Shown here: positions 5,387 to 58,770 of the stretch, one piece after another | How positions within the stretch are numbered: position 1 is the first letter of the stretch | How the letters are laid out: each line of letters begins with the position of its first letter | Assembly (NCBI GenBank): GCA_965153355.1 | Contig: OZ231126.1 | Coordinates: forward strand, 12,524,001-12,588,000 | Length of the DNA: 64,000 nt | DNA from: Flaccisagitta enflata | Taxonomy: Eukaryota | Direction: 5' to 3' | Made by a program: the position numbers and the translations under genes | The notes under the pieces: model-generated | What the model was told of the DNA's origin: nothing | What the model saw: the letters and a program-made list of their open reading frames with translations, nothing else | Databases searched by the model: none

Positions 5387-6078
5387 TTTTTGGCAGCAGC
5401 CCTGAAGGGGACGAATTCCTGTAGTTTATAGGGGAATCTGTCTGTCCGTACATCCGTCTGTATGTATGTCTGTACATCCGTCCGTATGTACGTCTGTACG
5501 TCCATCTGTCCCCCCTGCCCCATCCTCAGGGCTTCATCTCCTTTGGGGCTTTTTCTGACCAAAATTCTGCCAAATAGCCCAAATCCAAGCAATATGGCCC
5601 AAATCTAAGCAAAATGGCCCAAATTCAAGCATATTGGCCCAATTTCAAGCAAAATCGCCCAAATCTGGCCAGAAAACCCCAATTCTAGCCCAAAGTCCAT
5701 CATTTTGGCCCCTTAGACCTGCATTGTGGCCTCTGATACCTAGATTCTGACAAGATTTGAGCCATTTTGCTTGAAATTGGGCCAATATGCTTGGATTTGG
5801 GCCTTTTTGCTCAGATGTGGGCCGTATTGCTTGGATTTGGGCTATTTGGCAGAATTTGGGTCAGAATAAGCCCCAAAGGAGAAGAAGCCCTGAGGAAAGG
5901 GTGGGGGGGATGAATGGATGGACTGATAGGCGGATGGTCGGACAGACAGATTCCCCCTGTGTTTTACAGGACTTTGTCGCCTTTGGGGCTGCTGCCCTAC
6001 TCCCCCTAAATTTAAATCACACACTTAACGAGCAGAGCACGGGCACCGCTGGCCACTTAGTGCCTTTGGGCTGCTATT
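5387..6078 (+). mobile_element. Non-autonomous Helentron-like (HINE/DINE-1-like) element, family B
   Basis: Subterminal inverted repeats (GGCAGCAGCCCTGAAGGGGACGAA..CCTGTA near 5392; its complement near 5965-5997), GTCY-like repeats, internal 21-bp repeats and T-rich flanks. A relative lies inverted at 39833-40556. Confidence 0.7.
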
Positions 6079-10347: not shown

Positions 10348-10752
10348 CATTTTAAACCCTAGGTATTACATTTTATGAATTGTGTCATTGGCATTAATGG
10401 ATTGAGTTGGATTCCTACTGTAAAGTCGTTAAGTCTTTGGAGGTCAGAATATCAAAGAAGACGCGGTAAGGACCGCACTCAACCAATAAATATCATTGTA
10501 CAGTTCCACGAGTTAAAACTGTCATTCATTTGTCCAATGATTTGAATGTTGATGTTACCACAAAACGGATTAGAGGGGTTTTAAATGAAGCAATAGACAA
10601 TAAGCTGGCAATAGGAATAGTAAACGTGAGGAAGGTTTTGATTAGGTCTTATTTGATGTCTCTAAAGATCAATATTGGCAATGACACGCGTGTTACGCGA
10701 CTTTATCAGTTGCTTCATTGGATGGTCCATCTGTTGGTTGATTGATGGATGA

Positions 10753-11253
<501 letters not shown>

Positions 11254-12752
11254 TAGAAGCCTTGCCTGTTCTTGTAATTCGCATGTGAGACGGACAGGGA
11301 GTTCAGAAATGGTCTGAGTGACAAACATATATGCCGATGGACTTCAAAAGATTCACATTGCATCTCAAAATTTCTGCTCTTGTCTCATTGGGCCTAGATT
11401 CTAGTTTTGGAGCAAGATCCCTCATGCAACTTCCAGTCACGCCTTTCTATGGGCTGCTCCGAGTTTTTATGCGCATTTGATCGAGTCATGAGTGTGGTCA
11501 TACATCATATTTATGCTATCTCATATCTCGATAGTCCAAAATGAGTAACAGGCTCGAGTATTGATGTATAATCGGTGAAAATCAATGAAATAATGCATAA
11601 AATATAATGGCCATATCTAAAGAAAACTGGGTTCCCTCGCCTGTTTGATCAACGAGGCCGCGGAAACATTTTGCTAGAACCAACACTTCCGGTATAAAAC
11701 AGATGGAACCTATGGCTAATCTTATGGTTACTTACACTACAAAAAGAATTTGGAGGCTTCAGGCGTATAAGTATGCTCATAAATTTATTCTGAAGCGAAG
11801 ATACCATGATGACCTTCAGAAATTGGAAATTTGTCCAAAGTTCGTAATTTGATAAAAAATAGCTATTGAGCAATCAATGAGTGGGGATTTTTGAGTAGGG
11901 TTAGTATCTACATGTGTTATGGAGCATTGTTTGTTTTTATATGCTAAATTGGTTTTCAGAGCAAGGTTTTCACTCTTTAATAGGTTTTCGAAAATATTAT
12001 TTTCATATTTGAGAATTAAGAATATCAAAAAATAAGAGAAAAATTGCATTTATAAAAACATACCGGCCTTGGTATTGTAAATGGCTAGCCCGGTATGTTT
12101 TTGGTTTTTTCATTTTCTCATTTTTCATGCAAATTCTTAATTCTCAATGATTTAAGTTTGTCAACTGTTTTCTTCTTTTTTCCGCGAATTTCTGTGTAAA
12201 TCAGCAAAGATTGCTAGACAAGGAAAAAACATAATAGGCTCAGCATTAGTTGTATGCGAGTGAGTAGGGGCGTTGTCAGGGCTGGATACAGGGCCAATGT
12301 CAGAATCAAGAAATTGGGCAGGGGTGGTAACATGATCTAGCGGTGGCAGAATTATGAAGTAAGAAAAGAGAGGAATGATAAGCAGATACAATAAATGAAT
12401 AACTGAATGAATGAATGAATGACTGAATGAATGAATGAAATAATTAATGAATGAATGAGTTAGTGTTGAATGAATTATTGATTGAATGAATGAATGGATC
12501 AACATGATCAATACGTTGGTCCGCGTCCGCCCGTGAGCACTGAGCATGAGTCAAAAAGTGGCAAAACAATTGTCGTAGATGTTTGTGTCTGTTTGGGGGT
12601 GGGGGGGGGGCGGGGTGGTTGGAGGTTGGATACCCCTGCCCACCCGTCCGCGACGATATTGTAACCCTGGTCCCTGCATTACTTGTTATATCTAGTCCAG
12701 TCTGTCCCTTCTGGTTTGAAATATCTGTTTACATGTCTTGTTTGTCAGGATG

Positions 12753-12847: not shown

Positions 12848-13382
12848 GGAGGAAGGTATTTAAGTGCTTTAATTTCATTTGACAAACTTGATATTTGAAA
12901 TATAAATTGTTTACTCGATGCCCTGAGCTTTTTGGTTGCTATGGAAACCAAAATTGTTTTTTCAAACATTTATAACCACTAAAATATTGATATTTCAAGA
13001 AATATTGTCAGGGAACATTGCTCAAAATTAAATTTGCTACAACTTTCCCACAGTATGTTCTGTAAGAATATTGCTCGTTTGGCCGTTGCTAGGGGGCATC
13101 ACACCTAGCAACCGCTGAATGATGCTCCCTAGCAACGGCTAAACGAGCAATATTCTTACAGAACATACTGTCGGAAAGTTGTAGCAAATTTAATTCTGAG
13201 CGATGTTCCCTGACAATATTTGTCAAAATATCGATATTCTAGCCGTTATAAATATTCAAAAAAATAATTTTGGTTTCCATAGCAACCGAGAAACTCAGGG
13301 ACAAAAGCATCAAGTGAAAAATTTAAATTTCAAATATCAAGTTTGTCAAATGAAATTAAGACACTTAAATACCTTCCTCCAG
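12846..13382. mobile_element. Foldback (almost fully palindromic) MITE
   Basis: CTGGAGGAAGGTATTTAAGTG ... CACTTAAATACCTTCCTCCAG; arms complementary for about 250 bp around a short centre near 13100-13120. Confidence 0.85.
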
Positions 13383-15566: not shown

Positions 15567-15775
15567 AAAACAAGGCCGGATACACGGCTACCGAAGTCGC
15601 GTGCGGGTGGGCAGGGGTCATCTTTGAGGTCACCAGATCATTTGGTCAGGAGCAGTGAGGTCAAAGAAATAAAATCATGAAAAAAAGTAAAGTGTGACCG
15701 ACCGACCAACCGACCGACCGACCGACCAACCGACGGACAAAGCGGATTGTAGAGTCATGTGCACGCGACTAAAAA
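15567..15775 (-). mobile_element. HINE family A copy
   Basis: AAACAAGGCCGGATACACGGC ... (GACC)n ... CACGCGACTAAAAA. Confidence 0.8.
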
Positions 15776-16175
15776 CTGTTAGAATAAGCAAAAATGAATG
15801 AATTTATGAATGAGAGAGTGAATCAATTCATACAAAATCAATGAATATTACTAAAATATGATATTTTTTTCATGCATCAATAAAAATTGATGAAATAGTT
15901 ACATATTTTTTTAAAAACCTGTCAATTTCCCCCAACAGTCTATATTTGATAATTTATTAGTTTTTTTAGTAATATCTGGCTAAAAAATCAATATTTTGCA
16001 TCATTTTTTTTTGCAACGTGATCAGTATACAATGCCTCACTATAATCAACAATTGATTTGCTTCAAATCAATAATTCATTTTTTGACCCACATGACTGGA
16101 ATCTGACTGGCTGATCTTGCTCCGTGTCATAAGACAGTGTTGTGTTAAAGTAATGTTAAGTAACAGCGGGTGTGA

Positions 16176-18582: not shown

Positions 18583-18723
18583 AGAGAGAGAGAGAGAAGT
18601 GGGCGAAAAAAGCTTCTTAATTGTTAAGGATTAGAGAAGTGGAAAGAGGCCTGGAAGTTATGTCAGAAAGAGTGAATATTATAAAAATGAAGATGAAAGG
18701 CTAGAAAGAAATGAAGGAAAGGA

Positions 18724-18787
<64 letters not shown>

Positions 18788-18798
18788 AAAAAAGAAAG

Positions 18799-18873
<75 letters not shown>

Positions 18874-18952
18874 AAATAAGAATGCAAGAAAGCAAGAAAG
18901 CAAGGCAGAAAGAAGTAAAGAAAGCAAGAAAGAAAGAAAGGAAGAAGGAAAG

Positions 18953-19109
18953 AAAACAAGGCCGGATACACGGCCACCAGTTGCGGACGGGTGGGCAGGA
19001 GCGGAAATGAGCGTTTTCACACTTTTCGACTCGTGCTCACCGACGGACCGACCGACGGACGGACGGACGGACGGACGGACGGACGGACGGACGGACAAAG
19101 CCTCTTATA
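18953..19109 (-). mobile_element. HINE family A, left part; split by the 24-kb transposon and resuming at 43200-43229
   Basis: ...GACAAAGCCTCTTATA | 24 kb | CTTATAGAGTTGCGTGTCCGCAACTAAAAA rejoins into a continuous HINE end; compare GACAAAGCCTCTTGTAGAGTTG near 36460. Confidence 0.85.
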
Positions 19110-19171
19110 CAGAGGGAGGAATCTTAAAAACCTTTTAACAGCTTTTAACAGATTTTAACAGCTTTTAACAG
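19110..19171 (+). repeat. Left terminal inverted repeat (62 bp)
   Basis: CAGAGGGAGGAATCTTAAAAACCTTTTAACAGCTTTTAACAGATTTTAACAGCTTTTAACAG; exact reverse complement of 43138-43199. Confidence 0.97.
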
Positions 19172-19464
19172 AAAGACCCTCTTTTTTTGGGAGGGAACCT
19201 GTTAAAAACCTCCAGAATAGTGTTAAAAGTCGGGGACCTTCTTTATTTCAAGAAGCGCTTAAAAACTGTTAAAAACAGCTTATGTTAAAAACTTGCCCCG
19301 TTAAAATCCTTGTTATAAATACATGTTAAAAATCTGTGTTAAAAACACTGGTGAAAAAATCTATTTTTGTTAAAAACTTGCTCTTACTAATTCCGAAATC
19401 TTCTTAGTCTTTGTTAAATTCATAGTTAAAATCCTTGATTTTTGTAAAAACTCAAGTAAAAGGC

Positions 19465-19611
19465 CATGTTAAAATCCTTGTTAAAATCCTTGTTAAAATC
19501 CTTGTTAAAATCCTTGTTAAAATCCTTGTCAAAATCCTTGTTAAAATTCCTTGTTAAAATTCCTTGTTAAAATTCATGTTAAAATCCTTGTTAAAATCCT
19601 TGTTAAAATCC
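19465..19611. repeat. Left subterminal array, 12-13-bp unit TTGTTAAAATCC, about 12 copies
   Basis: Direct tandem copies; further dispersed TGTTAAAA motifs lie between about 19200 and 20125. Confidence 0.9.
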
Positions 19612-21464
19612 GTTCCCTAACCTTTTTTGGGTGTTTAGAATCATTGCACTACAAATTTTCTTTGATCCTTCTTTGGTGAAAGCATCTTCAATTGCCAAGA
19701 TTCTTGTTAAGACATCTTGTTTCAGATATAAAAAAAAATCCATTTTATATTTTTCTTACTAAAACTATTAAGATCATTAAAAGTTCTCTAACAAAAAAAA
19801 GAGTCCTCCTTTTAAAAAAAGGTCTGTTAAATTGGTGTAAAAAATTTCCGTTAAAACCTACGTTGAAAGCTTATGTAAAAAGCTAAAGCAAAATTTGTTT
19901 TTTTTTTTGCTAAACAAAGCTGGCCCGTTTAAAAGTCAAACTCGGTGTAACCCAAATAAACTTACAATAATATTTTTAGACCCCAGCTCAATTTTAATGC
20001 GTGGTCCATGTAGAAAAAAACAGACCCAAGGGCAACAGTCTCGCACATTTGGGAAGTTGGTCAGGGGCAGTACTAAAACACACACAAACAAAACCTACTT
20101 AAAACCCTATAAACACCTTGTTAAAACCGTTGACTCATAGAATAGTTAGATCACATCTCCAACGCATGTTCTGAGCTAGTCGATCTATCGACTTCAGCCA
20201 CTAGCCACAATTTAATCATCAAGCGCAACCTTCAGATGTTAGATTTTACAATTTACATTCTTTCTGAGTGCGTGTTTCAGGAAAAATTCCATTAGTTAAA
20301 GGACTTTGGTTCTAGAGCCTACCATCATCATCATTTTCTTCATTTTGTTAGTGCTAGCGTTAGGGAACATGTCTGATTACTCCTTTGGTTAGGTTTTGGT
20401 TGATTCATGATCTTAGGATTGTTTTTGAGAGCAAAGTCAGTGAATTCAGCCTTTGTTGTCAGTCCCATTTGTCGCGATTGAGGCTAATCTGAGTTTGCTA
20501 GTTCTCATGTCTAAACACTACGCTCTCTTGTCAGTCTATCAGTGTTCCCATTATCCTTGTTGAGGGGTTGACTAGGTACATTTTACATTGGTCAGATTAG
20601 TTTGTTTTGTTGGTGTTTATTGGTTAGGCAGGCTTGTTAAGGAACCACATATGCGCGTGGTTCAAAAAGATTTCCACTTTTTCACTTTTTAAGTCACCAT
20701 ATGTGTCGAGTGATGTTATATCTGGGCCTCAATTGTCAGGTTGCTCTCACGCTCTTTGTGTTTTTTCTTTTGTTGCAAAACCAAAATCTGGATGTTTAAG
20801 CATTACCTTTTTTATCACACAAAATCATAAAATGATTACTCGATTTACGCCAACATCTTCAGACTCCTCCTACACTTCCTTTGCATAGTCCTTCCAAAAA
20901 AAGTCAATGAACTGAATCTATAAAATTAAGCAAAACCTATGGCTATTGGTTGAATTGATAGATGGACTACATATCGTCGTGCTCTGGGCTGTTTTAACAA
21001 ACAGAAAAAAGAAACGCGTTTTAGATTTGGCAATTTCACAATTTACATCAATGACTTTTCTCCTTATAGGTCCTCAGAACGAACCAAAGACTCGTTTAAC
21101 AAACCAAGAAGTAATCGCCCAAGTCAAATTTTGGTACTTGGAAACTCTCCAGGGTCAATTTCAACCCTTATTTTGCCAGTCTAGTGGTGCATGTACGCCT
21201 CTGTTGGACAGTCTTTAAACGTTCAGCACTGACTGTTAGCCCGAGCAAGAATCACTTCAGAACTAATGGCTGATATGACTTAGGAATGCTATCTGATTTC
21301 CCGAACTCTTGCATGTTGCAATTTCTTGTGAATCTTACTGTCAATGAAAATATAATAACCCAGTATTAGACTTTCACTAACTGAAAGTTGTTTGTCCCTG
21401 CAGATAGAGAACATCCAAAATCCTTTTGTTATTCTAGACTCACGCGGCATATACCCTCGTCATT

Positions 21465-24400
21465 ATGTCTGGTACCCTGAATTCCAAGCATTTCTTAAGG
21501 AATCAGCTTGTTTACGTTCATCTTGATGGGAAATGGCGTCAAGGCATTGCCATGGAGCCATCCGTGGACCACACATCGTACAACGTCAAGTGGAAGCATC
21601 CAGGAAAAGAAGAGAGAAAGAAAAAGCGCGTGATGAGGTTCGTACTTATTTGGTGGTTACTATATTCATGGAGAAGTCCTTGAGGGATGTGATCATTTTT
21701 GGCTTGAACTGTTAATTCCAACTGCTTTATAATTGGGCCAGCAAATGCGCCAATGTGTGCGCAGGGTGGATAGTCGAACAAATGCGTGACAGACCTACCA
21801 ACCAACAGATACAGCCTCTTATTGATGTGCGTCGGTGCACATAAACGACTGATCTTGATGTCTGGTGATTTGATAGCATGCGTGCATGAAGAACGATTAT
21901 GATTTGCTGATTTGTGGTAGGCGTTTGTTAATTTGCCATGCCATAACATGCATTTTTAGTCGCGGACACGCGACTCTACACCTTGCCGTGTCGGTCGGTC
22001 GGTAGGTCCGTCCGTCCGTCCGTCCGTCCGTCACATTGTTGAATTCCGGGCGGTTTTCACTTTACTGCTCCTGCCCAACTGTCCGCGACTGTCCTGCCGT
22101 GTATCCGGCCTTGTTTCTACAGCAAAGATATTCAAGTCCAAATGCCCGAAGGTACAATATTTTCTTTACACCCTATCATATTCATAAGAACTTTGGTATA
22201 TCTCTGATGTTAAGGAGAAACAGTTAAACCTCGCAATAACAGATGCCAAGGGACCAAAAAACTTGTTCAGTCAAAGTTTGATTTATCTTATTGTTAGTAT
22301 AGAAAAAAATTTCATGAAGAGATCAAAACTTTTTTCTTACTCATAATAAGTATATACATAATAACTTACATAATTTCAGTGGATTCACATTACTCTCGGA
22401 TCTGTTATACCGGGGTACAATTATTCCTTCAATAGCAGTCGTTAAAGCTGTTTTGAAAAAAAAATTCTTACAGTTCCTTTTTTTTCTTAGATTGTGATTC
22501 AAAGAATCCAGGATAACTGTTTTCTCAGGCTTGGATATAGTTGCATATTTCTCCCGCAGGCCTGGGGGGTGGGGGGAAGAAAAATAACAAAGAAAATGAA
22601 AATGAAGAAAAAAATCAAATGGTAAAAAATTATAAAAAAGAAAAATACAGTAGCTTTTTTATGTATGTCAGTACTAAAAAGTATTATTTACTGCAACACG
22701 AAATCACACTCTTAAAACAAAAGTTATTACTCCATAGGGGGTATGTGGGGATAAATCCATTAGTTTGACCACGTAGGGAAGAAAATCAAAAGATCAGGGG
22801 GTGGGGAATGAAATCCGAAGTCATGCAACTATATACACCCCTGCACTTTTTATATGCCGTACTGATTGTTACCCCGTTGGGCTTGTTGAAGCAAGAGTCA
22901 ATGTGACTGAAATTGTTTTTTTTTTTCATCCTCGATTCTGTAGTTTCATCATCGTGTTCAAAACATGATGTAATACTGTCAAGAAGAACCTTCTTAATGT
23001 AGCATTTTTAATATTTTATTCAACCGTTTTGCTTATTTCATCTTAGACTATCAGGCGGAGGTAGCTGCATCCGTGGAAAATCATTCGCCGCCATCGATTC
23101 CGCGCTCAGTTGATCAGAATCATCCGGCTGTGCGTGCTGAAGCGGAGTCAAATGCAAGAGGCCAGGCATCCGGACATGTCGACCCTTGCCAAAGTCAAGG
23201 TAGATGTTGTATTTGTTGGAGCACTCATATTCAAAACAAGGCGGGTGGTTAGGGGCAGTGATAGTGATTGGGGCAGCTGATTTCATCATTAGCATTTGAA
23301 ATTACAAAAAAATCTGTATTTTCTCCGCCCTCCCATCCGCAGTGTTATGGCATTTCTGGGTGATTGTTCAGTACCACAGAACGATGGAAAAACATAGATA
23401 CACCAATGCAATGTTGCATGTCTGCAGCTAGAAACCGTTGATGGATGATATAAATAAGCAATTTGATAACTCAGTACCAAACTACTTAAATATGCTATCC
23501 TCCTTTTACTCTACAGCCAGAAAGGTCGGTCCTCTTGGACTCTCTCAAGATAAAGAAGAAGAAGTGCCTATCATTCCTAACCCCAAAAGGCGGAGAGTCA
23601 AGAACCAATCTCTATTCCCGGAGACTCCGGATTTTGTTGGAGATGAAACTTTCGAGGCAACTGTTCTCGCCGAAGACTCTCAAGTCGATGATTTTGCAGG
23701 TAATAATTGATCCCTACCCTAAACTGATGTCATATTGAAAAGCTCTTCTCAAAGTTTTTGATTACATTCAACATCCAGCATGGCCGGATACATGGCAATC
23801 CAGTCGCAATTTCAAAAGTATTTCAGACAGACTGACGGACTGACCAACCGACACGGCAAGGTTTAGTCGCGTGTTTGCTACTAAAAATTTCAAAAGCATT
23901 GAAAATGCGCTTATCTATGTGTTCCTCAATATATCTATGTAGGTGACTCTGTCGGCGCCACCAGTAACATGGCAGGTACAACCACAGATGACGCCGCTAT
24001 TGCTGGTTTGAACGCTGATTCGACTGCAAAAGGATCAAATGCCAAGGACAATACCACCGTTGACGGCACTAACGGCGTTGCTACTTCCTACCCTCTGGAG
24101 GCTAATGCCGAGGGCGTTGCAGATGTTGATTCTTCCGCCAATTTGGAGGAAGATAACAACGCCGCCAATACCGAGACCAACAGCAACAGAGATATCAACG
24201 CCGCTTCTGGTACCGCCCGAGATGATGGTACCGCTGCTGACGCCACGGCTCCACCAACTTCTGCCCAGGATGATGCGCCTGATGCCCCGGCTGCTGGTGC
24301 CCCGGCTGCTGGTGGCCCGGCTGCGGGTGCCCCGGCCGCTGATGCCCCGGCCGCTGATGCCCCGGCTGCTGGTAATTTTGAATTCCATTTTTAGTCGCTT

Positions 24401-26469
24401 GCAAAAGTCTCATTTAGAGGGCGTGTTCATGTAATTATATTCTTATCTGTCACCATATCCTTCCGACGCGGATCTCTTTAAGACAGATTTGTGTTGTCTT
24501 TGTCTGGAATTCGACATTTGAAAACCTTTTTCAATTTCAGAGAATGAGATTTGGGACGGGACTTCGCGTTGGGAGATGCCTGCTAACTACAGCGAGCTGG
24601 ATCCAGACGTGGAAAAGAAAAGAGAGGTAAATTTCTCTTGAATTGTGTTCAGGGGGAGTGAACACAAGGCTGGATACACGGCTACCTAAGTTGCGTGCTG
24701 GTGGGCAGGGCAGGGGTAGGCTGCAACGTATTTGTACACTGATAAAGTAAAAAATCGCAATTTGATAAACAGACCGACACTGAAAATTGGCACTTCCTGG
24801 GGATTGATTGAATCATAGCGTTTTCTGACATGCATGACTTGTATTGTTTTCGCAGGCGATTCGCAACAAAGTTGGTTCAGCCGTGATTGAAAGTCTCAAT
24901 GAGGAAGCAACCAGAACTATGGTCAGATCCATCTTGGCTAAGAGTACCGGAGGATGGACACAAGTCCAGCTGGGAAAGTTTTTAGGTAAGCAAAGTTCTT
25001 TATTTTCGAATGCAACCGAGAGATTTGCAGAAACATTACTTCAGGGGATTGCCCCAGCCTACAAGTGAGTTTTTCCCAGTTGTCAATCCTGTATCCTATA
25101 TAGAATCGTAGAATCATTAGAATGTGGGAAATATTCTTACAATGTCATAAGATTTCATTGACTCTATTATACAGTAGATCTCGTCTAGACTTGAGATAAT
25201 GGGGGCAAGCATTGTGAAAAGATGAATGAAGGTAGGGGAGTGATATTTGAATCCTAGACTAATCACAGGATGCTTAATTCCCCATGATAGCTGGTTGCTA
25301 CGGAAACACTTTTCCATGTATTCTCGCTGAAATATCAATATTTTGAGAGATTTTTTAGGGAACATTGTTTAAAATCAAATTTGCGACAACTTTCCCACAG
25401 TATGTTCTGTAAGAATGTCGCTCATTTGGCTGTTGCTAGGGAGCGTATCCATGTGTGACAACCATTAGCAACAGATAAACGAGCGACATTCTTACAGAAC
25501 AAACTGTGGGAAAGTTTTAGCAAATTTGATTTTAAAAAATGTTCTCTCAAAAAATTTCTCAAAATATTGATATTTTAGCAAAAATACATAGAAATGTGTT
25601 TATTTAGCAACCCGATTTCATAGGCAATAAAGCATCCCTTTATTAGTCTATGTTTCAAATATTATTCCCCTGGCTTTATTTTTTTTCTACAATGCTTGCC
25701 TCCGTTATCTCGAGTCTAGACAAGATCTACTGTATAAGCTGATATTGCATTTTCTGCCGCCAATACAAGAATGAAAGGCTTTGTCCGTCGGTTGGTCGGT
25801 GTTGCGGTTGTTTGACAATCATGGCCTACTTAGCTTTGCGATATATTTCATTCCATTAGCTTAAAAACTTCACTGTGCTGTTTTTTTCCTGTTCAGCTCG
25901 ATCGGCGTCGATCCTCTCCAATTATCTGAACACTGACCCTGATGTCCGAAAGAAAGTTATTCCTGACACGCAAAAGATCATCGCAGAGGACCTGAAAATC
26001 TTTTTGACCTTCATCGCCAAGGAAGGCATTCTCCCAGAGATTGCAACCCGGAAGCCATTAAGGGTGAGTAAACAAGGCTGTTGGTTCGGGTCTGTTTTGT
26101 TGAAAATATATTACTAAAGAAAAGTAAGATCGACAAACTAACCAACTGATAGCTTGTAAGTGCGTGTAGACTGCTTAGAATATTTAGAATAGATCAACTC
26201 AGTGAAATACTCCAAATATTCCTTAACAGAAACCTCACGTCAGGAAGAAGACGAAGCATCCAGGCATTTCAGCGGAAAAGAAAAGGCTGATCCTACGGGC
26301 CTTCACCGACGCCGTCTCGCGCGCAAAGGCTGAAAAACCCGATCTTTCGGAAGTCGAGGAGGAAGGCGTGATTAAAGATTCCATGAAAAAGCTTTCCGAT
26401 TATCATGGCATTGAAATTGCCAAGATTCAGGACTTTTACCGTAATCATAAGAAGTTTGGAACCCAGTAA
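21465..26469 (+). CDS. Transposon accessory gene A, 529 aa: Tudor-like domain, acidic low-complexity linker, lambda-repressor/XRE-type HTH, homeodomain-like C-terminus
   Basis: Nine GT-AG exons with compatible phases: 21465-21637, 22123-22151, 23047-23199, 23517-23699, 23943-24371, 24541-24626, 24856-24985, 25897-26063, 26230-26469 (1590 nt, open to TAA). Motifs: VYVHLDGKWRQG..YNVKW..VMSKDI; WTQVQLGKFLARSASILSNYLN; MKKLSDYHGIEIAKIQDFYRNHKK. Upstream exons cannot be excluded. Confidence 0.75.
21954..22116 (+). mobile_element. HINE family A copy in intron 1 of gene A
   Basis: TTTTAGTCGCGGACACGCGACT ... (GTCC)n ... GCCGTGTATCCGGCCTTGTTT. Confidence 0.8.
25172..25732. mobile_element. Palindromic Tc1/mariner/pogo-type MITE (TA TSD) in intron 7 of gene A
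   Basis: TA-CAGTAGATCTCGTCTAGACTTGAGATAA ... TTATCTCGAGTCTAGACAAGATCTACTG-TA; arms complementary towards the centre. Confidence 0.8.
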
Positions 26470-26486
26470 TTGGCACCGGTGCCTTA

Positions 26487-27129
26487 TAGACCAGGTTGTT
26501 GAAGAAAGGACTCGGCTTTTCTGGAACAAAGGTTGAAAATTTGCATACAAGTATTTAAAGTGTTGTAGATCATAATAATGATAGATGCAGGTCAAAAAAA
26601 TTTGAGCACCTATCTTTAAAAATTGTTTAAAATTTTTAAAATCATGCCATCGCCAAACCGCTTGAGTGAGGGCAATGAAATTTTATGAGCTAAAAAATAT
26701 GTATTTCGTACGTATGCACACCAAATTTCAGCTCGCTAGCTTTATTAGAAGCAGAGATATAGCCGATTTACTTTTGTATACAAAAACTGCATTTGTTTGG
26801 AAAACGGGTATTTTGAAGATAAATGCACCCCAAAGTAAATCGGCTATATTTCCGCTTCTAATATAGCTAGAGAGCTGAAATTTGCTATGAACATGTATAA
26901 AACACATTTTTGTTTGCTCATGAAATTTTATTGCCCTGAGGCAGACAGTTTGGCGGTTTCATCGTTTTGAAAATTTTAGATGAATTTTTAAGATAGATGC
27001 TCAAATTTTTTTGACCTGCACCTATCATTATCATGATCTACATATCTTTAAATACTTGTAGGCAAATTTTCAAGCTTAGTTCCGGAAGAGCCGAGTTTGC
27101 TCCATTTCATGCATCAACAGACTGGACTA
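26487..27129. mobile_element. Palindromic MITE with TAG...CTA termini and 3-bp TSD (Academ-like)
   Basis: TTA-TAGACCAGG ... ACTGGACTA-TTA; long complementary arms (e.g. TGAAAATTTGCATACAAGTATTTAAAG / CTTTAAATACTTGTAGGCAAATTTTCA). Confidence 0.7.
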
Positions 27130-27427
27130 TTAAGCAAAAGCTGTCTTCCCTCGTTTTCATTGGATTGAGTTTAATAGAACTGGATGATTTTGAAAAGCCA
27201 TGATGCTCTATCTCATTATTGCTAAAAATGGCCAAATGTGTCATGGCCAGTTCTTTTTTCGTAGAATTGCGAATGCATGCGCAGCTAGATAGATATCTTT
27301 GTTAGCATTTTTATTTTTACTCTTTTTTTCTCACTTTCCGCTAAACTCTGTCATGTTGTCGTTATTATCGGGAAAAAAGTCGAAGTCAGTCTTCGATTTT
27401 GACATATTCGAGAGAAACATGGTTTTC

Positions 27428-27743
27428 ATTTTTTAAGTGCGTCCTCGCACTTCTATAAGAGGTCATGTCCGTTGGTTGGTCGGTCGGTCGGTCGGTCGGT
27501 TGGTCGGTCGGTCGGTTGGTAACGCAATCGTTTAAATCGCTCAAAACGGCCAATTCTTCATTACTATCACTTCTCATGCCTCACCACGCTCATTTTCATT
27601 CTTTTATTCATTCATTTATTCATTCATTCATTCATTCATTCATTCATTCATTCATTCATTCATTCATTCATTCATTCAAAACGTTCAACCACAAATTCTT
27701 AATCAAGCGAGGCGCACTTATTGGCCATAACTTGGCCTTGTTC
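27428..27743 (+). mobile_element. HINE-like element with GTCG and CATT tracts
   Basis: TTTTAAGTGCGTCCTCGC start, subterminal GCGAGGCGCACTTA, 3' hairpin GGCCATAACTTGGCC, CTTGTT end. Confidence 0.65.
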
Positions 27744-27899
27744 ATGAGAAAGTCGAGTATCGCATCTGGGCGAATGTGGCCTCAAATGAAATTGATAGGA
27801 GTAAGAACATATGATAATTCTCTTTCATTTAGCGCCAAGCAGAACAAAAATTTTAAAGATTTTTAGTTGCAGGCACGCGACTCTACACCTTGCCGCTTG

Positions 27900-28610
27900 T
27901 TTGTTGTTCGGCAGGTCCCTCGGCTGGTTGGGTGGTAGGCTGGTTTGACAAGATAGTGTGCATGTGTTGAGTTCTTCCATTTAGAAACTCCATACCAAGT
28001 TTCAATCAAATTGTTTGAAAAATTTCAAAGTTATGCAAGTTTTTCAGTTTTAGGCTGATAGGCTAGTTGGGTGGTACGCTGGTTTGCTCGGTTAGCATGT
28101 GAATTGCTGGTTGGGTGGTAGGCTGGTTTGACAAGATAGTGTGCATGTGTTGAGTTCTTCCATTTAGAAACTCCATACCAAGTTTCAATCAAATTGATTG
28201 AAAAATTTCAAAGTTATGCAAGTTTTTCAGTTTTAGGCTGATAGGCTAGTTGGGTGATACGCTGGTTTGCTCGGTTAGCATGTGAATTGCATACATGTGT
28301 TAAGTCCCTCTATTTTGAAACTACATATTAACCAAATCGGTTAAAAAATGCTATAGTTACGCATGTTTTTTTACTTTTAGGCTGGTTGGGCTGGTTGGGA
28401 TGGTCGGATCAAACAAATCAGATAGGATGTAAAACGCCTTACCCTAGTGCTACTTCCCACCAAATATCAACCACATTAGTAAAAAAACATAAAAGTTATC
28501 CATATTTTAAAATCCATGACAACAACAACACCCACCCGCCTTGAATTATAAAAAAATTGCACTGGCTGAGGATGAAAGCTTCGTACAAAGTGACCAATGC
28601 TTACGACTTT
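27900..28610 (+). mobile_element. Dispersed element with internal tandem repeats of about 150-180 bp (probably HINE-type)
   Basis: 27923-28105 is repeated almost exactly at 28106-28288; a homologous copy lies inverted at 32705-33920. Confidence 0.6.
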
Positions 28611-28925
28611 ATTCCACACGGCAATTACTGCCATTACTGGTAGGAGTTATGTTGATCAGCTTATCTTTTTTCAGTGACAGTACGTTACTACATCGTTATA
28701 TTAGCTCTAGTGCTTTTAAGCCATCTTTTGCGACGGTCTTCTTAAGAGTGACTTCGTCATCAAAGTGATTCCCGTTATTCGGCAGTAACTCTTCGTGTTT
28801 CTTCCTAAAGCAGAGCCTTGCATCGTTCTTCGGCGTGGCAAAATCTCATCGGCAGAATCGTCGTTTAGCAGGGCGTCTTCGAGTATCACATCTTAAATCT
28901 TATATTAAGCGTTCCAGTTGGCTTA

Positions 28926-29605
28926 ATGAACATGAATATCATCGTAACTTCGTCTCAAGATCCCGTAGCCAATGCGACTCACGCCAAGTGTGCTATATGC
29001 CTCGGCATTGTCCCAGCTAGGAGGGCTTCAATACATCGAATTAAGTGTGAGGAGCAAAACCCCGATCTCGTGCCTCCGTTTCGATGCGCTGGTGCTTCAG
29101 GCCATATGTTCCATACTGCGTTTGAGTTGGAAAGGCACGAGCGATCTTGCCCTTGCCTTGCGGAGATACGAGAGTCACTCCTTGGGCCACCCCGACCAGT
29201 TGTGACGGGCAATGTACGTGCGCCGACTCCAACCAATCTCATTCCCGACGAACAATGGACAGATGAAGATCTCATAGAGACCGATCGATCTTTCGAATTG
29301 CCGCCCGTCCGCGATGACGAATACGACGCGTACACGGCAAAGGCAGTTCATGCCTTGGCAACCGAATTTTCTGATGATTGTCCTATTCGCAAGTGAGTTT
29401 TTCTGCACTCGTTGTTTCTTTGAGTTTCGTTTGATGGTGATACTTAACTCTCAACGCACCTCATCGCAACTTAATACATCAACATCATGATACAATAGAT
29501 AAACCTAGTTAAATACTGCATCACGATGCTGATGGAGTAACCACATTGGGTTGCGATTTATTTAATAGCTAATGCCTTTCTAATCCCCTCTCTCTCTCTC
29601 TCTCT

Positions 29606-29651
<46 letters not shown>

Positions 29652-31309
29652 CATACACACACAGAATTAAACGTTTACATCAACGCGCTCTTGGCATAGT
29701 GAATGGAAAGGGCAGCATCCGTGAGAGCGTTCCCATCATAACCCTCCCCATCAGCAATCCGCCAATAGCTTCTCATGATCCGCTATCGCATGAGGTCATT
29801 TCGGACCTTCTGGCGCTGAGTCCTATGGAGCGTGAGAAGCGGATGATTCAGCTTCTGATGCAGTTAAAAAGAAAGCATCCAACTGGGGAGCAGAAGGCGA
29901 CTTTTATTGCGCGGGCCAAATCGTTTTGCGCCATGATTGATCATGATCGGCTGCCACGCTTTGTTTTGAACCTTTGCGATGGAAACTTTCGAGAATTAGG
30001 CCATTGGGAATCAGGCCTTGGCCACTCAACGCCTATCCAAGTGGCTTACACGCTGGGCCTTGGTCATATCAGTGTGGAAATCTTCGAAACTTATCTATAT
30101 TGGAATTCTTGCCTTGAAGAAGAAGTAGTTTTCGAATTCGCCAAATTAGCGGGAAAACAACGTGTTGGAGATGCGATTGAGCAACTGATCAAGCTGCTTA
30201 ATCCGAAATTTGATGCCATCAGCCATCTTCAACTGAATGAATTTTTCTTTGATCGCATCTCTAAATTGGATGGAATTCCGCCTCCAAACCCGCAACGTGT
30301 TCGCAAGTTCATCTCGGAACTGAGTGATAGTGTGGGACTCTCAGACAAAACGGAATTTGAACAAGTCAATGAATATTTCAAGAAACTCTTGGATCGCCTC
30401 TCTCAGGGGGGTATGGAGCTCGTGGATTTTGTTATCAGGATCCATCAGGCATGTGGGGAAGAGGACCGATATTGGTTGGCAATCTTTACGCTGCTCTATG
30501 AGAAGATGCCTGACGTTGGATATGTTTTGTACAAGACCTTGTCGCCCCTGGATGGTTTTGTCCATCTCCAGCCGCCTGTTGATGTTGCCTTGCTCCCCTC
30601 AAGTTTTAAAGAAGCTAAATGCGACAAAAACGGGGTTTATTTCCACGAGCTCTGCGATTCGGCTTCATTTTTGGTTGTTGAGCAAGAAGAAGACTACAAC
30701 CGTGCCATCGCATCAATTGTTGCGGAGACTGGACCCATTCCGCTTGTGGTGAGGAAATCTCAACTCCCGCCGCACCTTCCCAGACCTCCCGGCTTTGCAG
30801 TTCTAGCAATTATTGCTGAAGATATGACCTTCATTTTGCAAGCTGAGTCAATCATCCTAGGCTCCCCGCAGGAGGCGCTCTTTCGTCGTCTCGTCAATTC
30901 CTTGTCTTCAAAATATTTGATTGTTTCGGGTTCCGCGGGATGGTCGCCGCTGACCATGATTCATGCCCTTCATCGTGAATTTGAGCCCTGCTTTCCCATC
31001 TTGCTGACCACGGTTCTTCAAAAGCAAACTACGAAGAAAGATGCCTTGGCTTTACTTGTTTTGCCTGATGGCGAAGCTGTTTGTCACAGATTTGAGCTGA
31101 CCATCTGGGAGTATTTCGAAGATGACGATGACCTGAAAATCCGCCACTTGGCTGCTCAACTCCAACTCATAAAAAGGGCGACATCTATTTTGATGGCAAA
31201 TGGTGCCAGTTTGGAGTCCCTCGCTGTCGATGGCCACCGCTCTTACAAGAAGGCCCAGAAGAAAGCTACGCGACCATTCAAGAATTATCCCTTCAAAGTT
31301 GTTGATTAA
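28926..31309 (+). CDS. Transposon accessory gene B, 703 aa: GTSF1/Asterix-like tandem zinc fingers fused to a degenerate Mut-7/EXD3-like 3'-5' exonuclease domain
   Basis: Exon 1 is 28926-29392 (donor AA|GTGAGT); exon 2 is 29665-31309 (acceptor ACACAG after a (CT)n tract). The phase-2 join is in frame (2112 nt). Fingers: CAIC-x11-HRIKC-EEQNPD and C-x5-H-x10-H-x3-C, then acidic DEQWTDED. The C-terminal region follows the Mut-7 exonuclease motif order but lacks the catalytic acidic residues. Confidence 0.8.
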
Positions 31310-33920: not shown

Positions 33921-36534
33921 GAACTTTTACTTGTTGCAATCTGAAGAGTTAGTGATCTTTTGATTAAATTGATCTTAAGGAATCTTCAACCCCCTTCCCT
34001 CCTGGACGCAAATACAGTTCAGATTTTCTCTTTTTACTGAGCTATGGATATTTGTGATCTAAGTAGCCATTTTGTCATTGTCATCGTCCAACAAATATAA
34101 GCTTCTTAATGTGTTTACCTAGTTTTAGATAATGATAAAGCAAATCATGATGATTGTCACTCACTGTAACTCTCTCTGTGTAACGTTCTGGGCTTAGACA
34201 TAAGAAACAGAAAATGGAGACTTTACTGCAGCAAAAACTGACTGCCCTGCGGGAAAAGTTTGATGCGCACCCTATTTCAAGAGATGCCTTAAAATCCGAC
34301 TCAAACTTCCTTCGTGACTTGCGTTGTAAATGCGGTTGGACAATTTCCATAAAAGAAGGAGCAAGGCCCTCCAAGGTTCTTACTGAAGTAAAAGAACACT
34401 ATGCCAAAAGAAAAACCATTTCCACAGCCCGAAAATTTAAGAATTCTGATGATCGGCACAGCCTCTTTGGATTCCATTTGGAGGATGATAACATTGTGTG
34501 CCACCAAACACCATCTGTCTTGGGGTGGCTTAATCCTGCAGCGGCAAGGGCCCCTCCTCAGCCAACAATACCTACAAACAAAAAGTATGTCTACCCAACA
34601 TCTGCTATAGATGAAATTCAACAACAAGAGAATGAAAAAAAGGACATAAAGCAAGCTTCTTTTGAAAGTGTGCAACAGCAAGAGAATGAAAAAAGGGACA
34701 AAGAGCAAACTGCCTTTGAAAGTGTTCAACAACAGGAACAAGAGAATGAACAGCAACAAAACTCACTGAGCGAAACTGCCATTGCAGAATCAGATCAGCG
34801 TGAACGTCAACGAATGCAAAATTCCTTTAAAGCCATGTTAGATCAGTTTGCCAAAATGCCTACAACTCCAGACTGGCTTATGAATCTCATTTGGGCTCAC
34901 AAAAATGGTAAAATCGATGCCGTACAAACCGCCGCACTAGAAGCTTTGGGGTCATCTTTCACTGACGCTCCTCGGAACCGACAATATTGCGAATTGAGTA
35001 AGGTTTTGTTCCGATACTTCAGTCTCACACAATCTGAAAAGTCCTATGAAGTATTTCGCCGCATTTATGGTGGTCCGACTTTTCGATATCTGACCGCTCT
35101 ACGCATAGACATTCTCACTGATGTGGGTTGTACAACCCGAAATATGGTGGAAGCGCGTATTTTCTTTGAAAAGGTAAGTTGTTGAAGTTTTTTTTATTCG
35201 TGGACATGCGACTCCACCTTGCCGTGTCGGTCGGTCCGTCAGTCACATTTCTGAATAGCGATTGGTTTTCGCATTACTGCTCCTGCCCAACTGTCCGCAA
35301 CTGTATTGCCGTGTATCCGGCCTTGTTTATTTCCAAAATTCAGAAAATGCTAACATAGTAACATTCTCCAAAGATGGAGATGTTCAAAAAGAGGCTCTTT
35401 AGCCATGTAAACAATTATTCACTGTCAGTTGGTCAGTTTTTAGGTTGAGTATTTAAGTATGAATTTAGTGATCAAAGTAGGTACTCTGCTATGAATAGAA
35501 AACCGCTTGCGACAGTCACCCCATTGACCTTGTTTAATCCTAATCTTGTTCTTGACAGATGGGCTACAAAGGCGTTATGATATGGGCTCATGATGAACAT
35601 CCAACCATGTGGGGCCTCAACTTTGATACTGCAAGTGGCCAAATAATCGGCGGCACTAATAAAACGCCACACGGAGACCTTAAAACAGTGAATGATGTGA
35701 TAGATTTCCTCAAAAAGCATACCAATGTTAGCAATCAACCAACTGTCTCATTGGTTGGGGCAATTTGTGCCTTGGGGAAACGTCTCCCGCTCTGTCCAGT
35801 TAGTTCTGAGCTCAGCCCACTTCTCAAAGGAGTGACATGGGAGTTTTTAACCACCTATTTGGAAAATGTTGGTAAAGCCGCCTTTTTGGCACTAGTGATT
35901 ATCGTTGCCATAGTGACAGACAATGATACGAGGATGCGTGGCAACACTTTAAACACTTGCTTGAAGGAACATATGAAAGAAGATGACGTTTATGTTGAAA
36001 TTGATCATCCAGCTTCCAGAATTGTTGCTCCTTGCATTTTCAACCGAGGTAAACCGGTTGCAAGACTCAAAGATGTGGAGCATCTACAGAAGGGATGGAG
36101 AAACAATCTTAATGTTCCAATGGTGTTGGGGTCCGAGAGTTTGTTTTGGTTGCACGTGGACCAAGTTCGTTTGTGTTTTCCTTACAGCCAGCATGGTTTA
36201 GGCGTCATGGACACCAACATTGCAGTAAGTGAATTTGTCCTCTTTAGTTTCTATAATATTTAGGCCTCCGTCGGTCCGTCTGTCGGTCCGTCCATTGATC
36301 CGTCTATCAGTCCATCATGGTCATCGAGTTGAAAAGTGGGAAAACAAGTGTTTTAGGTACTTGATAGATGCCCCAGCCCACCCGTCCACAACAATATTGT
36401 GACCCTGCGTCAATTGTTCAACTTAATCATCAAATCATCATATATGGACTAACTGATGGACAAAGCCTCTTGTAGAGTTGCACGAGTTATCACGGACCAT
36501 TGTAGATGGATCTTTAGAAGGACTGATTGTAAAG

Positions 36535-38642
<2,108 letters not shown>

Positions 38643-39832
38643 TTGTAAAGCCACGAGTCTGCATCTAGAAAGATTATGGCAAGTTTCTTATGGTAACTCT
38701 TATCATTCAACAAAATATCAACTCAGTGACATTCTGATTGAACAACATGACAATAATTTCTGCATATTGAGCTGTTGTTCTTGTTTCAGCAAGAGCTGGT
38801 AGGTCTCTTTTTGCTTTTTCTGGTCGTGGATACGCGACTACACCCTGATGTGTCGGTCCATCTGTCTTTAACGCTTTAAGTTTGTCTATTAGTCACATTT
38901 GTTAATTGCAAGCGGTTTTCACACTACTGCTCCTGCCAATTTATTTGTGACTGGATCGCCATGTATCCAGCGTTTTTTAAAGTTTTGGAAGCGCAACTCT
39001 TTTAGAGGCTTTGTCCGTCCATCAGTCCATTTGTTGGTTCATGTTCAAGAGTCGAAAATGGGGAAAACAAGTCTTTTAGATCCTTTTTGAGTATGTGTTT
39101 GTTGAAAGGGGGGGGTGGGGTGTGGATGGTTGTTAGGAATCCACTGCCCACCCATCCGCAAAGATATTGTGACCCCGCATCACTTGTTGCATCATTGCTC
39201 CTGGCATTTGACATATACAGCTCACTCAGCCTATTGTAACAAGTCTCTTGTTGTATAGAATGTAATAGACCAATGCCCATGTACAACTACTTTTCATCTT
39301 CTTCACAGGATCGCCAGAAAGTGTCGCCAGCCCAGAGGGTATTGCATCCAAGAGTGCGCAAGTGCCTGAGAGAGCTTGACCGGAGGAAGAAGTCTAGCGA
39401 CCGAGAAGGGCTTTGTATCTACCTGGAGGTCGGTGATAAAATGGTGGAAGCTTTAATGAGCCAAGAGATGGACTTTCTTCAAAGGATATATTATGTATGG
39501 CGAGCTCATTTTTTTCTTCAAGAATGGAAGGCCTGGTTTTTACATGAAAATAACTGCTACTCCGGGAAATTTAGAATAAATGCCTTACCATCTCAGCAGA
39601 TAATGGATGGAGTAGAGATAACAGCCAATGGTCTCACTCTGCTTATTATCATTATGGCCGAGTTCTATCCAAATGAACCGCTCTTAGTTGATCAAGTCAA
39701 TACTAAGAAGCTAGAAAATTTCTTCGGCACTGTTCGACAACAGCCTGGTAATTGTCAAAGCCACACATTGCAAGAAATGATGGGAAAGCAACGAAGAGCG
39801 GTTCTGAAAGACTTGACTGAAAACGAGTTGAA

Positions 39833-40556
39833 ATAGCAGCCCAAAGGCAGTAAGTGGTCAGCGGTACCCGTGCCCTGCTTGAGTAGTATGTGATTTAGGT
39901 TGAGGGGGAGCAGGGCAGCGGCCCCGAAGGGGACGAAGTCCTGTAGAACACAGGGGAATCTGTCCATCCGTCCGTTCGTCTGTCCTCCTCAGCTTTCCTT
40001 GCCTTCAGGATGCCAAATTATGAAAATCTCAAATGACAAATGGAAATATACAAGGGCAATTGGACAAGGGTGGGGGAGCAGGCCAGGATCTAGGTCTCTG
40101 AGGCCAGAATCTGGGTCTCAGAGGCCAGGGTTGGAGTCTCTGAGGCCAGGTCTTTGGGAGGAGGATAGGGCCTTGAGATTTAGGTCCAGGTCCTGGGTCC
40201 TGGAGGCCAGAATCTGGGTCACAGAGAGCAAGATCTAGATCTCTGAGGCTAGGATTAGGGTTTTAGAGGCCAGAATCTGGGTATTAGAAACCAGGATCTA
40301 GATCTTAGGGGCCAAAATGATTGAATTTTGACCAAAATTCAGGTTTTCTAGCCAGAATTTAGCCATTTTGCTTGGATTTTGCCATTTTGCTTGGATTTGG
40401 GCCATTTTGCTTGGATTTGCACTCCAAAGAAGACAAAGCCCTGAGAATGGGGCGGGGGGGGGACGGACGTACGGACGTACGGACGTACGGACGGACGGAC
40501 GGACAGATTCCCCCTGTGTTCTACAGGACTTCGTCCCCTTCGGGGCCGCTGCCCAA
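39833..40556 (-). mobile_element. HINE family B inserted in transposase exon 3
   Basis: Near-perfect inverted repeats (39912-39965 vs 40501-40554). Removing it restores GAG TTG AAG TAC (ELKY); it inserted at an AA/TT site, as Helentrons do. Confidence 0.85.
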
Positions 40557-41763
40557 AAGTACTGTGATAAACTACCTCAAGAAGCTCAAAAATTGCCCGA
40601 CAATTGCTACCCAGCAAATATCCCTGATTTACGGCATGAAATCAATTGCCGCATTGATCAAGCTAAAAAAGATGTAAAAGAAATGTTAAAGCCTTTCTTA
40701 GTTCTACCTTCCGATCCTGCTGATCCCCAAGAAGCTGTTTCATCTGAATTTGAAAGAGAGGAAGGTGGCTTTAGCGATGATGACGAAGACCAGTCACATG
40801 AGTTCCAAGACACTGGATTGTCACAGAAATCCGCTCACACTGTTGTTGATGAAGATGGGAGCCATCATAGTATACCATCCCTTGTGAGTGAATGGATAGG
40901 GAATCCAAGAAGAAACCGGGCAAGCAATAGGCTAGCACGATTCCTTAATGATCTCCACTACATGCCCCGCGATACTAATCCTCGCCTCTTTGAACAAGTT
41001 CGCGAGGGCATAATTTTAAGAATCAATGACTATGTGCTTTACCCAAAGAGGCTTAACAAGCAGAAAGACTTGCTTGTCGGAAAAGTCATTTGTTTTGTGA
41101 ATCATTACATTGCAAAAGGTGTTCAACGACAACAACAGCTTTTTGAAGCTAGCTCACGTGAGGATGAAGTCTGGTTGCGTCTTTTTACCGTTGACAAGAA
41201 TGGTCAGCTCCATTACTCCCACGAACGTTATGAAAAGGTTTCATTGGCGCTGATCAATTCACAACAGAACCTGACCACTGTGAGAAATGGAAAGATCTCA
41301 GATTTTGTTTTAGAACGATACTTTGAATTGAAACCTCTGCTTTGGAAGCCTTTTGATGATCTTGAGAAAGCAAAAGATGATGCAAAAAAAGCTGAAAGGG
41401 AAAAGAAACTGCAAGAGTGTACGGTTCCTATCACTTCATTGAGGTTGGATGAAGCCTGGAATGAGTGTTTTCGACGGTTGAAAATTAAGGATAAGAGAGA
41501 ACTGTTTGATGCATTAAAGCAGCTAGAAGGATCAATTTGTGCGGAGTTGGAGCTGGAGGAAACCAGCAGATCGTTTACTCTTGCTCGTTTAAAGCTGATA
41601 ATTTCCGTTTTGCGCAAGAATAACGTCTGGCTTCCAGAAGAGAATGACGATGACCAAGGAACTCAGGAAGAACCAGAAGTTACCCAAGCAGAAACTCAAG
41701 CTACCCAAATGGAAACTCAAGCTACTCAACCGGATGAGAATGATCATTGATGGTATGTCTTGC

Positions 41764-41769: not shown

Positions 41770-41932
41770 TGTGCTTAATTTATGTTTAGGCATATCTTTA
41801 TTCCTCCTTTCACATTAGGTAGTAGGCAAGTAAAGAACTTTATAACCCAGTACAAAGCTCAAATTTGCTAGTCAGCAGGATTAAGAACTACATAATTTAG
41901 ACGAAATTTTGACCCAAAAGACAAGTTGTTTA

Positions 41933-42998: not shown

Positions 42999-43137
42999 TA
43001 TTTTTTTAACAGATTGCTCACAAGGTTTTTAACCGTTTTTTAAAGTTTTTTACAGTTTTTAACAGAAACATTCTCCCTCAGTAAGCTTTTAACAAGCTGT
43101 TAAAAGCCTTTTAACACGTACCTCTTTAATTTGGGGC

Positions 43138-58578: not shown

Positions 58579-58658
<80 letters not shown>

Positions 58659-58690: not shown

Positions 58691-58770
<80 letters not shown>

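Follow-up and report, generated by a model that had tools for sequence, protein, structure and literature searches.

A nine-exon gene inside a 24-kb transposon of Flaccisagitta enflata and its possible role as an accessory DNA-binding factor of the element

A 64,000-nucleotide (nt) stretch of the Flaccisagitta enflata genome (GenBank assembly GCA_965153355.1, contig OZ231126.1, positions 12,524,001 to 12,588,000 of the forward strand; hereafter the window, in whose own coordinates all positions are given) raises the question of whether a gene scattered over nine exons at 21465-26469 is real and, if so, whether it serves the mobile element in which it lies. An earlier note on this DNA had proposed the gene and had read its product as a chain of a Tudor-like domain, a lambda-repressor-type helix-turn-helix (HTH) and an atypical homeodomain. 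In the present analysis the gene, which encodes 529 amino acids (aa), looks genuine and intact, and it was found to lie within a 24,090-bp transposon with perfect ends. The explanation that we favour, tentatively and with slightly less than even confidence, is that the gene is carried by, and probably belongs to, this transposon, for which it would encode an accessory DNA-binding protein.

The nine-exon model was reproduced by joining the coordinates of its parts, which are separated by eight GT..AG introns with compatible phases. The spliced frame (21465-26469, plus strand, as are all the exons) comprises 1590 nt and encodes 529 aa followed by TAA, with no internal stop. Exon 1 (21465-21637; aa 1-58) starts with the ATG at 21465, preceded in its frame by a stop 27 nt upstream, and encodes a basic N-terminal module with approximately 31% hydrophobic residues; its donor (GAG/GTTCGT) is the top-scoring one inside the open frame, and the donors able to skip the following exon (scores 1 and 2 of 6) both fall below it. 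Exon 2 (22123-22151) is a 29-nt micro-exon contributing SKDIQVQMPE. A linker of low hydrophobicity begins in exon 3 (23047-23199; aa 68-119) and continues through exon 4 (23517-23699; aa 119-180), which was confirmed by direct translation (as was exon 1) and contains PKRRRVK, a string resembling a nuclear localisation signal, and exon 5 (23943-24371; aa 180-323), which is acidic, rich in Ala and Pro, and carries an in-frame 15-nt repeat (APAAG/APAAD). The C-terminal structured region begins with exon 6 (24541-24626; aa 323-351). Exon 7 (24856-24985; aa 352-395) terminates in GGWTQVQLGKFL, the first half of an HTH-like motif whose second half, (A)RSASILSNYLN, opens exon 8 (25897-26063; aa 395-450), and exon 9 (26230-26469; aa 451-529 and the TAA) encodes the terminal module K.HP...K..ILR..DA...E.P...LS..H.I...I.D.YRN. 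The gene had been described as mostly invisible in a track of open reading frames (ORFs), which holds, as exon 5 alone is present among the stop-to-stop ORFs of at least 150 aa; the peptides quoted from the product are likewise all found in the spliced translation. No paralogue of the model was detected within the window by tblastn, a search that did not report exon 4 of the model itself.

Chaining GT..AG segments is cheap in itself, the interval from exon 1 to exon 3 offering 54 open AG..GT segments of compatible phase. The micro-exon was the only one of these 54 to pass the splice thresholds satisfied by the other exons, thresholds that were chosen after the fact. The composition of the model is distinctive, with a GC content of 0.41-0.60 in exons versus 0.33-0.44 in introns. 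Intron 1 has a higher value (0.48) and contains a GC-rich short interspersed nuclear element (SINE) (21953-22116, minus strand, recognised by alignment with four other copies in the window). Moreover, the frame of every exon closes 3-85 nt beyond its splice sites.

Codon log-odds, trained on six long ORFs found elsewhere in the window and with stops left uncounted, amounted to +150.7 bits for the model in frame, compared with -2.6 and +27.4 bits off frame and -119 to -142 bits for the introns. The frame of the model had the top codon score in eight of the nine exons, the remaining one (exon 1) being a near tie; exon 5 alone reached 0.451 bits per codon in frame, with 15 stops in one of its off-frames. 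The per-codon value of the whole model was attained by 6 of the 818 open segments taken as controls from other parts of the window, and by none of 20,000 resampled sets matched to it in total length. Since four of the six training ORFs reside inside the same transposon, this test strictly shows that the gene shares the coding style of the other ORFs of the element, whose codon usage it matches. The splice sites are distinct as well: the mean pyrimidine fraction of the acceptors is 0.72 versus 0.475 for 286 other AGs in the span, with C or T at position -3 in all eight, and the donors score 4.25 versus 1.76 for 258 other GTs, both means being reached in 0 of 100,000 random draws. Composition, codon usage, splice sites and the conservation of exon 9 (see below), as four independent signals, led us to regard the nine-exon model as real.

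A full HMMER pass with exon 9 (79 aa) against 1.84 billion representative proteins produced four matches at E ≤ 0.001. Three of them (one protein with insect allergen repeats and two other repeat proteins) were discarded as spurious: all are long proteins with internal repeats, and the match to them was either split over several stretches or confined to a short span. The sole credible relative (E 4.4e-4), here called P0003, is an unnamed ORF of 98 aa on an ENA metagenome contig of 669 nt, and its cluster has no other member; it was also the only near-length protein retrieved with a profile built from exon 9 and P0003. The alignment of the two sequences covers 71 aa without a gap (32% identity, 61% positives), and its Smith-Waterman score of 118 may be compared with 27 ± 5 (maximum 59) for 5000 shuffles. 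The residues of exon 9 kept in P0003 are R5, K6, H10, P11, K17, I21, L22, R23, D27, A28, E35, P37, V47, K53, L55, S56, H59, I61, I66, D68, Y70, R71 and N72. The P0003 frame terminates a few residues past the YRN motif, as does that of the window protein, and the residue directly preceding the aligned block in P0003 is Q where the window has a CAG acceptor before exon 9, which would fit a phase-0 exon boundary common to both. The conserved hydrophobic residues are spaced at i, i+3/4 and i+7 in three stretches, with a G/N turn ahead of the last one, a pattern that a three-helix HTH module would be expected to produce. The comparison thus supports the view that the last exon encodes a conserved module.

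The "element" of the earlier note proved to be real, as the gene lies inside an insertion bounded by perfect terminal inverted repeats (TIRs). The left TIR (19110-19171) starts with CAGAGGGAGGAATCTT, includes four copies of TTTTAACAG at 10-nt steps, and is complementary at 62 of 62 nt to the right TIR (43138-43199), its perfect inverted copy; looser similarity between the two ends extends further inward. The TIRs are bordered by a 6-bp direct duplication, CTTATA (19104-19109 on the left and 43200-43205 on the right). Outside the duplication, the flanks represent the halves of a single (GACG)n SINE copy (18960-19103 with 43206-43230), which when fused with a single CTTATA regain the 12-nt spacing of the other SINE copies. 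Perfect TIRs, CTTATA on both sides and a split SINE identify a 24,090-bp cut-and-paste insertion with a 6-bp target-site duplication.

Both ends of the element are rich in one short motif. GTTAAAA (or its complement TTTTAAC) is present in four copies at 10-nt steps in each TIR and in dozens of copies in both subterminal arrays, namely (i) a cluster on the left (19199-19652), which includes a 12-nt tandem array at 19423-19652, and (ii) a 23-nt tandem array on the right (41904-43000), each unit of which contains the near-palindrome GTTAAAAAGGTTTTTAAC (29 exact copies). The window contains 72 copies of GTTAAAA, of which 65 are at or just inside the two ends of the element, 3 in its interior and 4 outside it. 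The gene begins 2.3 kb inside the left end and lies on the plus strand, which also carries every other long ORF of the element (28869-29393, 29573-31306, 34184-35182, 35556-36260, 39240-39833 and 40332-41747). No credible Pfam family was found in these six ORFs, nor anything credible in 44 further plus-strand ORFs, and profiles of PIF-type DDE transposases, Myb-like ORF1 proteins, and hAT- or P-type proteins had no match in the ORFs scanned. The TIR pattern had no match in prokaryote and viral contigs.

Two other identifications were considered for the mobile DNA. A (GAAA)n tract at 18720-18955 and a (CTTT)n tract at 58520-58770, which score as an inverted repeat spaced by 39.6 kb, the longest one reported for the window, were rejected as TIRs because they are microsatellites. 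Polintons/Mavericks are characterised by a 6-bp duplication and a length of approximately 20 kb; membership of the element in this group is unlikely, as the plus-strand ORFs scanned gave no match to a polymerase, integrase or protease family.

The predicted protein can be divided into three parts. The first (aa 1-67; 31% hydrophobic residues, 19% K+R) displays a beta-like alternation of hydrophobic residues and includes W24, Y39 and W43. The second (aa 68-322; 255 aa) is acidic, contains only 14% hydrophobic but 69% small or polar residues, and bears KRRR at position 142 as well as the 15-nt repeat; it resembles a disordered linker that bears a nuclear localisation signal. The third (aa 323-529; 207 aa) is basic, with 25-31% hydrophobic residues and 16-24% K+R, and contains both the string GGWTQVQLGKFL-A-RSASILSNYLN, which spans the exon 7/8 junction (codon 395 being split by the intron), and the terminal module.

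On the explanation that we favour, the protein would be nuclear, and two parts of its C-terminal region would bind DNA, namely the HTH-like motif where exons 7 and 8 meet and a terminal module of three helices that is homeodomain-like or Myb-like. The likely target would be GTTAAAA/TTTTAAC in the TIRs and subterminal arrays. Bound there, the protein might mark or pair the ends of the element for the transposase, in the manner of the second protein of PIF/Harbinger elements or of TnpA of En/Spm, and the small N-terminal module might provide an anchor, either on chromatin or on a partner. If this is correct, the 24-kb DNA transposon has been mobile recently, and it retains an intact duplication and identical 62-nt ends; none of its proteins is recognised by Pfam, and one of them is a multi-exon, probably DNA-binding accessory factor with hardly any relatives in a set of 15 billion proteins. 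The element would extend the known examples of DNA transposition by two or more proteins, and would offer a defined pair of protein and DNA motif, i.e. the C-terminal 207 aa and the GTTAAAA repeats.

DNA transposons that rely on two proteins are well established. A publication on PIF/Harbinger elements (PMC2836001) describes their second (Myb-like, ORF1) protein as element-encoded and non-catalytic, with a small helical DNA-binding module, and as needed beside the transposase. Here too a separate gene is present in a TIR element whose ends are rich in one short motif. The F. enflata element differs in that no PIF-type transposase or Myb domain was found in it, in its length of 24 kb, in the nine exons and extra N-terminal module of the gene, and in its 6-bp duplication, that of PIF/Harbinger elements being 3 bp. 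TnpA of En/Spm (CACTA) is an accessory protein translated from a multi-exon transcript; it recognises short repeats in the subterminal regions and brings the two ends into contact. The subterminal arrays of a 7-nt core at both ends of our element, and the possibility of an element-wide transcript, are reminiscent of this system; in contrast to CACTA elements, the termini start with CAGAGG and the duplication is 6 bp long. By analogy, the element would seem to work like the known two-protein DNA transposons while being a member of none of those compared, given the lack of a match to PIF, hAT or P-type profiles, the 6-bp duplication, the 24-kb length and the orphan proteins.

Several results weigh against this explanation. 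Only one relative could be detected among approximately 15 billion proteins, and none was found in metagenome contigs (queried with the exon 9 + P0003 profile and with exon 8) or in viral contigs or prokaryote contigs (the latter queried with the profile). Exons 1, 5, 6, 7 and 8, scanned singly, matched no Pfam family at E ≤ 10, the threshold of all Pfam and PDB searches with the exons and P0003; exon 9 gave only a noise match (Tautomerase, E 0.12), and P0003 likewise nothing above noise. In PDB searches with phmmer and hmmsearch, neither exons 1, 8 and 9 nor the profile combining exon 9 with P0003 had a match above noise. The sole hint of a transposase in the element is PF21789 (TNP-like RNase H C-terminal domain; E 0.11) in the ORF at 39240-39836, and no PDB match backs it. 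At the gene itself, the SINE copy of intron 1 ends (22116) only 6 nt upstream of the micro-exon, whose acceptor tract is consequently in part SINE-derived; and no AATAAA or ATTAAA is present between the stop of the gene (26469) and 29666, so the transcript may be longer or alternatively spliced. Both the DNA binding and its target are, finally, things that we purely infer. Should the explanation fail, the locus would still hold an unannotated orphan gene inside a transposon.

As the HTH-like motif is split by intron 7, scans of single exons are unfair to it, and a Cro/C1-type profile, built from 10 HTH_3 domains of E. coli K-12, was run on the spliced protein. Its single match (aa 384-406) coincided with the junction motif, with both helices aligned, but scored -1.7 bits. 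Of 2000 shuffles of the full-length protein 190 scored as high, as did 100 of 2000 shuffles of its C-terminal region. A profile of bacterial origin is, moreover, a blunt tool for domains of the POU/CUT/HNF type. Of the lambda-repressor HTH proposed earlier there thus remains an HTH-like motif at the junction, with no Pfam match for exons 7 and 8 scanned singly and a profile score within the shuffle range. The accompanying statement that the HTH appears only after splicing is right in that the motif straddles the junction, and "only" is too strong, because the unspliced read-through of exon 7 is also partly HTH-like (3.5 bits with the same profile, over helix 2 and the turn only).

Among the competing explanations, the one that survives best, though we consider it unlikely, is that the gene is a passenger, which the transposon picked up wholly or in part from the host and which is of no service to it, as in gene-capturing Pack-MULE-type elements. 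Nine exons and eight introns with nested SINE and foldback insertions do resemble a host gene, and the link between the protein and the ends of the element is one that we infer. A passenger would nevertheless have to be reconciled with a fully intact open frame, with codon usage fitting that of the other ORFs of the element and an orientation common to all its long ORFs, and with the finding that neither exon 9 nor its profile with P0003 retrieved any full-length relative among proteins of 140-2000 aa.

Quite unlikely, in our judgement, is the exact reading of the earlier note, according to which a Tudor-type reader linked to an HNF1/POU/CUT-like pair, with an atypical homeodomain containing a loop insertion, would act as a sequence-specific chromatin adaptor for the element. 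Its Tudor domain (exons 1-2) could not be substantiated, exon 1 matching no Pfam family and the searches yielding no PDB sequence match. The homeodomain fared no better, as neither exon 9 nor P0003 matched the Homeodomain profile and the PDB searches gave only noise; profiles of Homeodomain, HNF, POU, CUT, TUDOR, Chromo and PWWP found no match in any of the exons scanned. What speaks for this reading, besides the junction motif being the best match of the Cro/C1-type profile, is the placement of exon 9 on homeodomain numbering. Made by eye and with a 16-residue insertion in loop 1, this placement brings I21/F25 to positions 16/20, F69/Y70 to 48/49 and N72 to position 51, which in homeodomains has a recognised role. 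According to a homeodomain review (PMC4901127), the core signature of homeodomains is L16, F20, W48 and F49 with a basic R5; position 48 may also be F or Y, position 49 may be Y, and additional residues can occur in either of loops 1 and 2. At positions 16/20/48/49 the window protein has I/F/F/Y and P0003 has I/I/L/Y. The L at 48 and a Q at 53 in P0003, as well as the H that replaces R5 in both sequences, argue against the assignment, and a Myb/SANT-like alternative fits the same three helices by eye. In view of L48, of the H at position 5 in both sequences and of this Myb/SANT fit, we refer to the exon 9 module as homeodomain-like or Myb-like.

The likeness to the HNF1, POU and CUT factors lies in the order of parts, an HTH-like motif followed by a putative three-helix module with a loop insertion, and in the GTTAA half-sites that occur as inverted pairs in the repeats of the element. 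In HNF1, a POU-specific-like domain is located upstream of an atypical homeodomain (PMC4901127), and the binding consensus is GTTAATNATTAAC (PMC11476927). The differences are the lack of profile or PDB similarity, the spacing of the half-sites, and the site of the insertion, which in HNF1A is in loop 2 (PMC4901127) and in exon 9 would be in loop 1; the resemblance of the GTTAA half-sites to the HNF1 site is only a lead. For the homeodomain classes HNF1, POU and CUT, PMC4901127 mentions a Tudor domain nowhere (0 occurrences). The domain story as a whole (Tudor, lambda-repressor and homeodomain folds) is unproven, and the role of the protein as a chromatin adaptor of the element is putative. If a fold kinship to HNF/POU/CUT-type factors were true, it would bear on the origin of bipartite DNA-binding domains.

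A more elaborate form of this reading, which we regard as distinctly unlikely, would make the product the element's own HNF1/POU-like bipartite DNA-binding protein, with a lambda-repressor-like domain and a divergent homeodomain-like module, fused to a chromatin reader of the Royal family (Tudor/chromo/PWWP). It would read the inverted GTTAA half-sites, repeated more than 60 times at the ends of the element, and anchor either the 24-kb transposon or the transposase on chromatin that bears marks. Comparable links between the integration machinery and marked chromatin are made by chromodomain integrases and PWWP-type tethers. The N-terminal 67 aa are similar to such tethers in their beta-like character and in W24, Y39 and W43, and they differ in having no TUDOR, Chromo or PWWP profile match and no PDB match. 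If the bipartite reading were true, a class of developmental transcription factors of animals would have a relative carried by a transposon, within a lineage of DNA transposons with proteins assignable to no described superfamily. HMG-box, MRG, LEDGF-type and LOTUS domains were also considered for parts of the protein; these were ideas formed by eye, which no search supported, and they were dropped.

It is very unlikely, in our opinion, that the nine exons form the 5' portion of a transcript which spans the element and undergoes alternative splicing, like that of the TnpA/TnpD system of En/Spm, with exon 9 as one alternative end and some isoforms fused to the downstream ORFs. All long ORFs of the element are on the plus strand, the stretch that follows the gene (26469-29666) is free of the canonical hexamers, and an AATAAA is present at 41764, 14 nt beyond the stop of the last ORF of the element, which would suit such a transcript; non-canonical poly(A) signals are, however, common. 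A further point in its favour is a strong alternative donor (CAA/GTGAGT) at 25065, 79 nt beyond the donor of exon 7; reading through to it would add 27 codons (GKQSSLFSNATERF...). This donor is phase-compatible only with an AG inside exon 9, near 26243, and may reflect an alternative isoform or chance. The stop soon after the conserved motif in both exon 9 and P0003 fits a true terminal exon and thus argues against an element-wide transcript.

That there is no functional gene at all, the open segments being joined by coincidence or the locus being a pseudogene in decay, is likewise very unlikely, since the points in its favour (no known domains found, a single distant relative, a SINE adjoining the acceptor of the micro-exon, and 54 compatible candidates for exon 2) are confronted with coding and splice signals far beyond the controls, a conserved last exon, and 1590 nt with neither stop nor frameshift.

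Besides the nine-exon gene, the element contains at least two further multi-ORF genes lacking Pfam families. One candidate consists of a Cys/His-rich ORF (28869-29393) followed by a 578-aa open frame (29573-31309); no Pfam family was found in it, and a neighbouring 496-aa ORF stretch had no relative in prokaryote contigs. The other is a chain of plus-strand ORFs at 34184-41750 (333, 235, 198 and 472 aa), broken up by a SINE and by (GAAGCG)n arrays, which may encode the transposase. The (GAAGCG)n blocks (36557-36775 and 38403-38639) have A/T-rich spacers and a period of approximately 42 nt, and lie between the putative transposase ORFs.

The SINE family is characterised by an internal (GACG/GACC)n run, a 3' hairpin (AGTCGCG...CGCGACT) and a poly(A) tract. 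Its copies were found at 15567-15781, 18960-19103 with 43206-43230 (the insertion target of the element), 21953-22116 (inside intron 1 of the gene), 37121-37330, 47611-47853 and 53347-53552. An Rfam scan of 19000-43300 and a tRNA scan of the whole window returned nothing, for this family or otherwise. Foldback sequences resembling miniature inverted-repeat transposable elements are also present: one of 571 nt (25167-25737) is nested in intron 7, another (26510-27096) begins 41 nt past the stop of the gene, and two more are located at 12921-13300 and 5469-5950.

Two observations concern DNA outside the element. A 415-aa open frame at 59004-60251 had no Pfam match at E ≤ 0.01; by eye it appears to be the C-terminal part of the reverse transcriptase of a non-long-terminal-repeat retrotransposon. 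At 10642-11384, a long trinucleotide array is open in six frames and gives rise to "ORFs" composed of poly-N, poly-T, poly-Q and poly-L.

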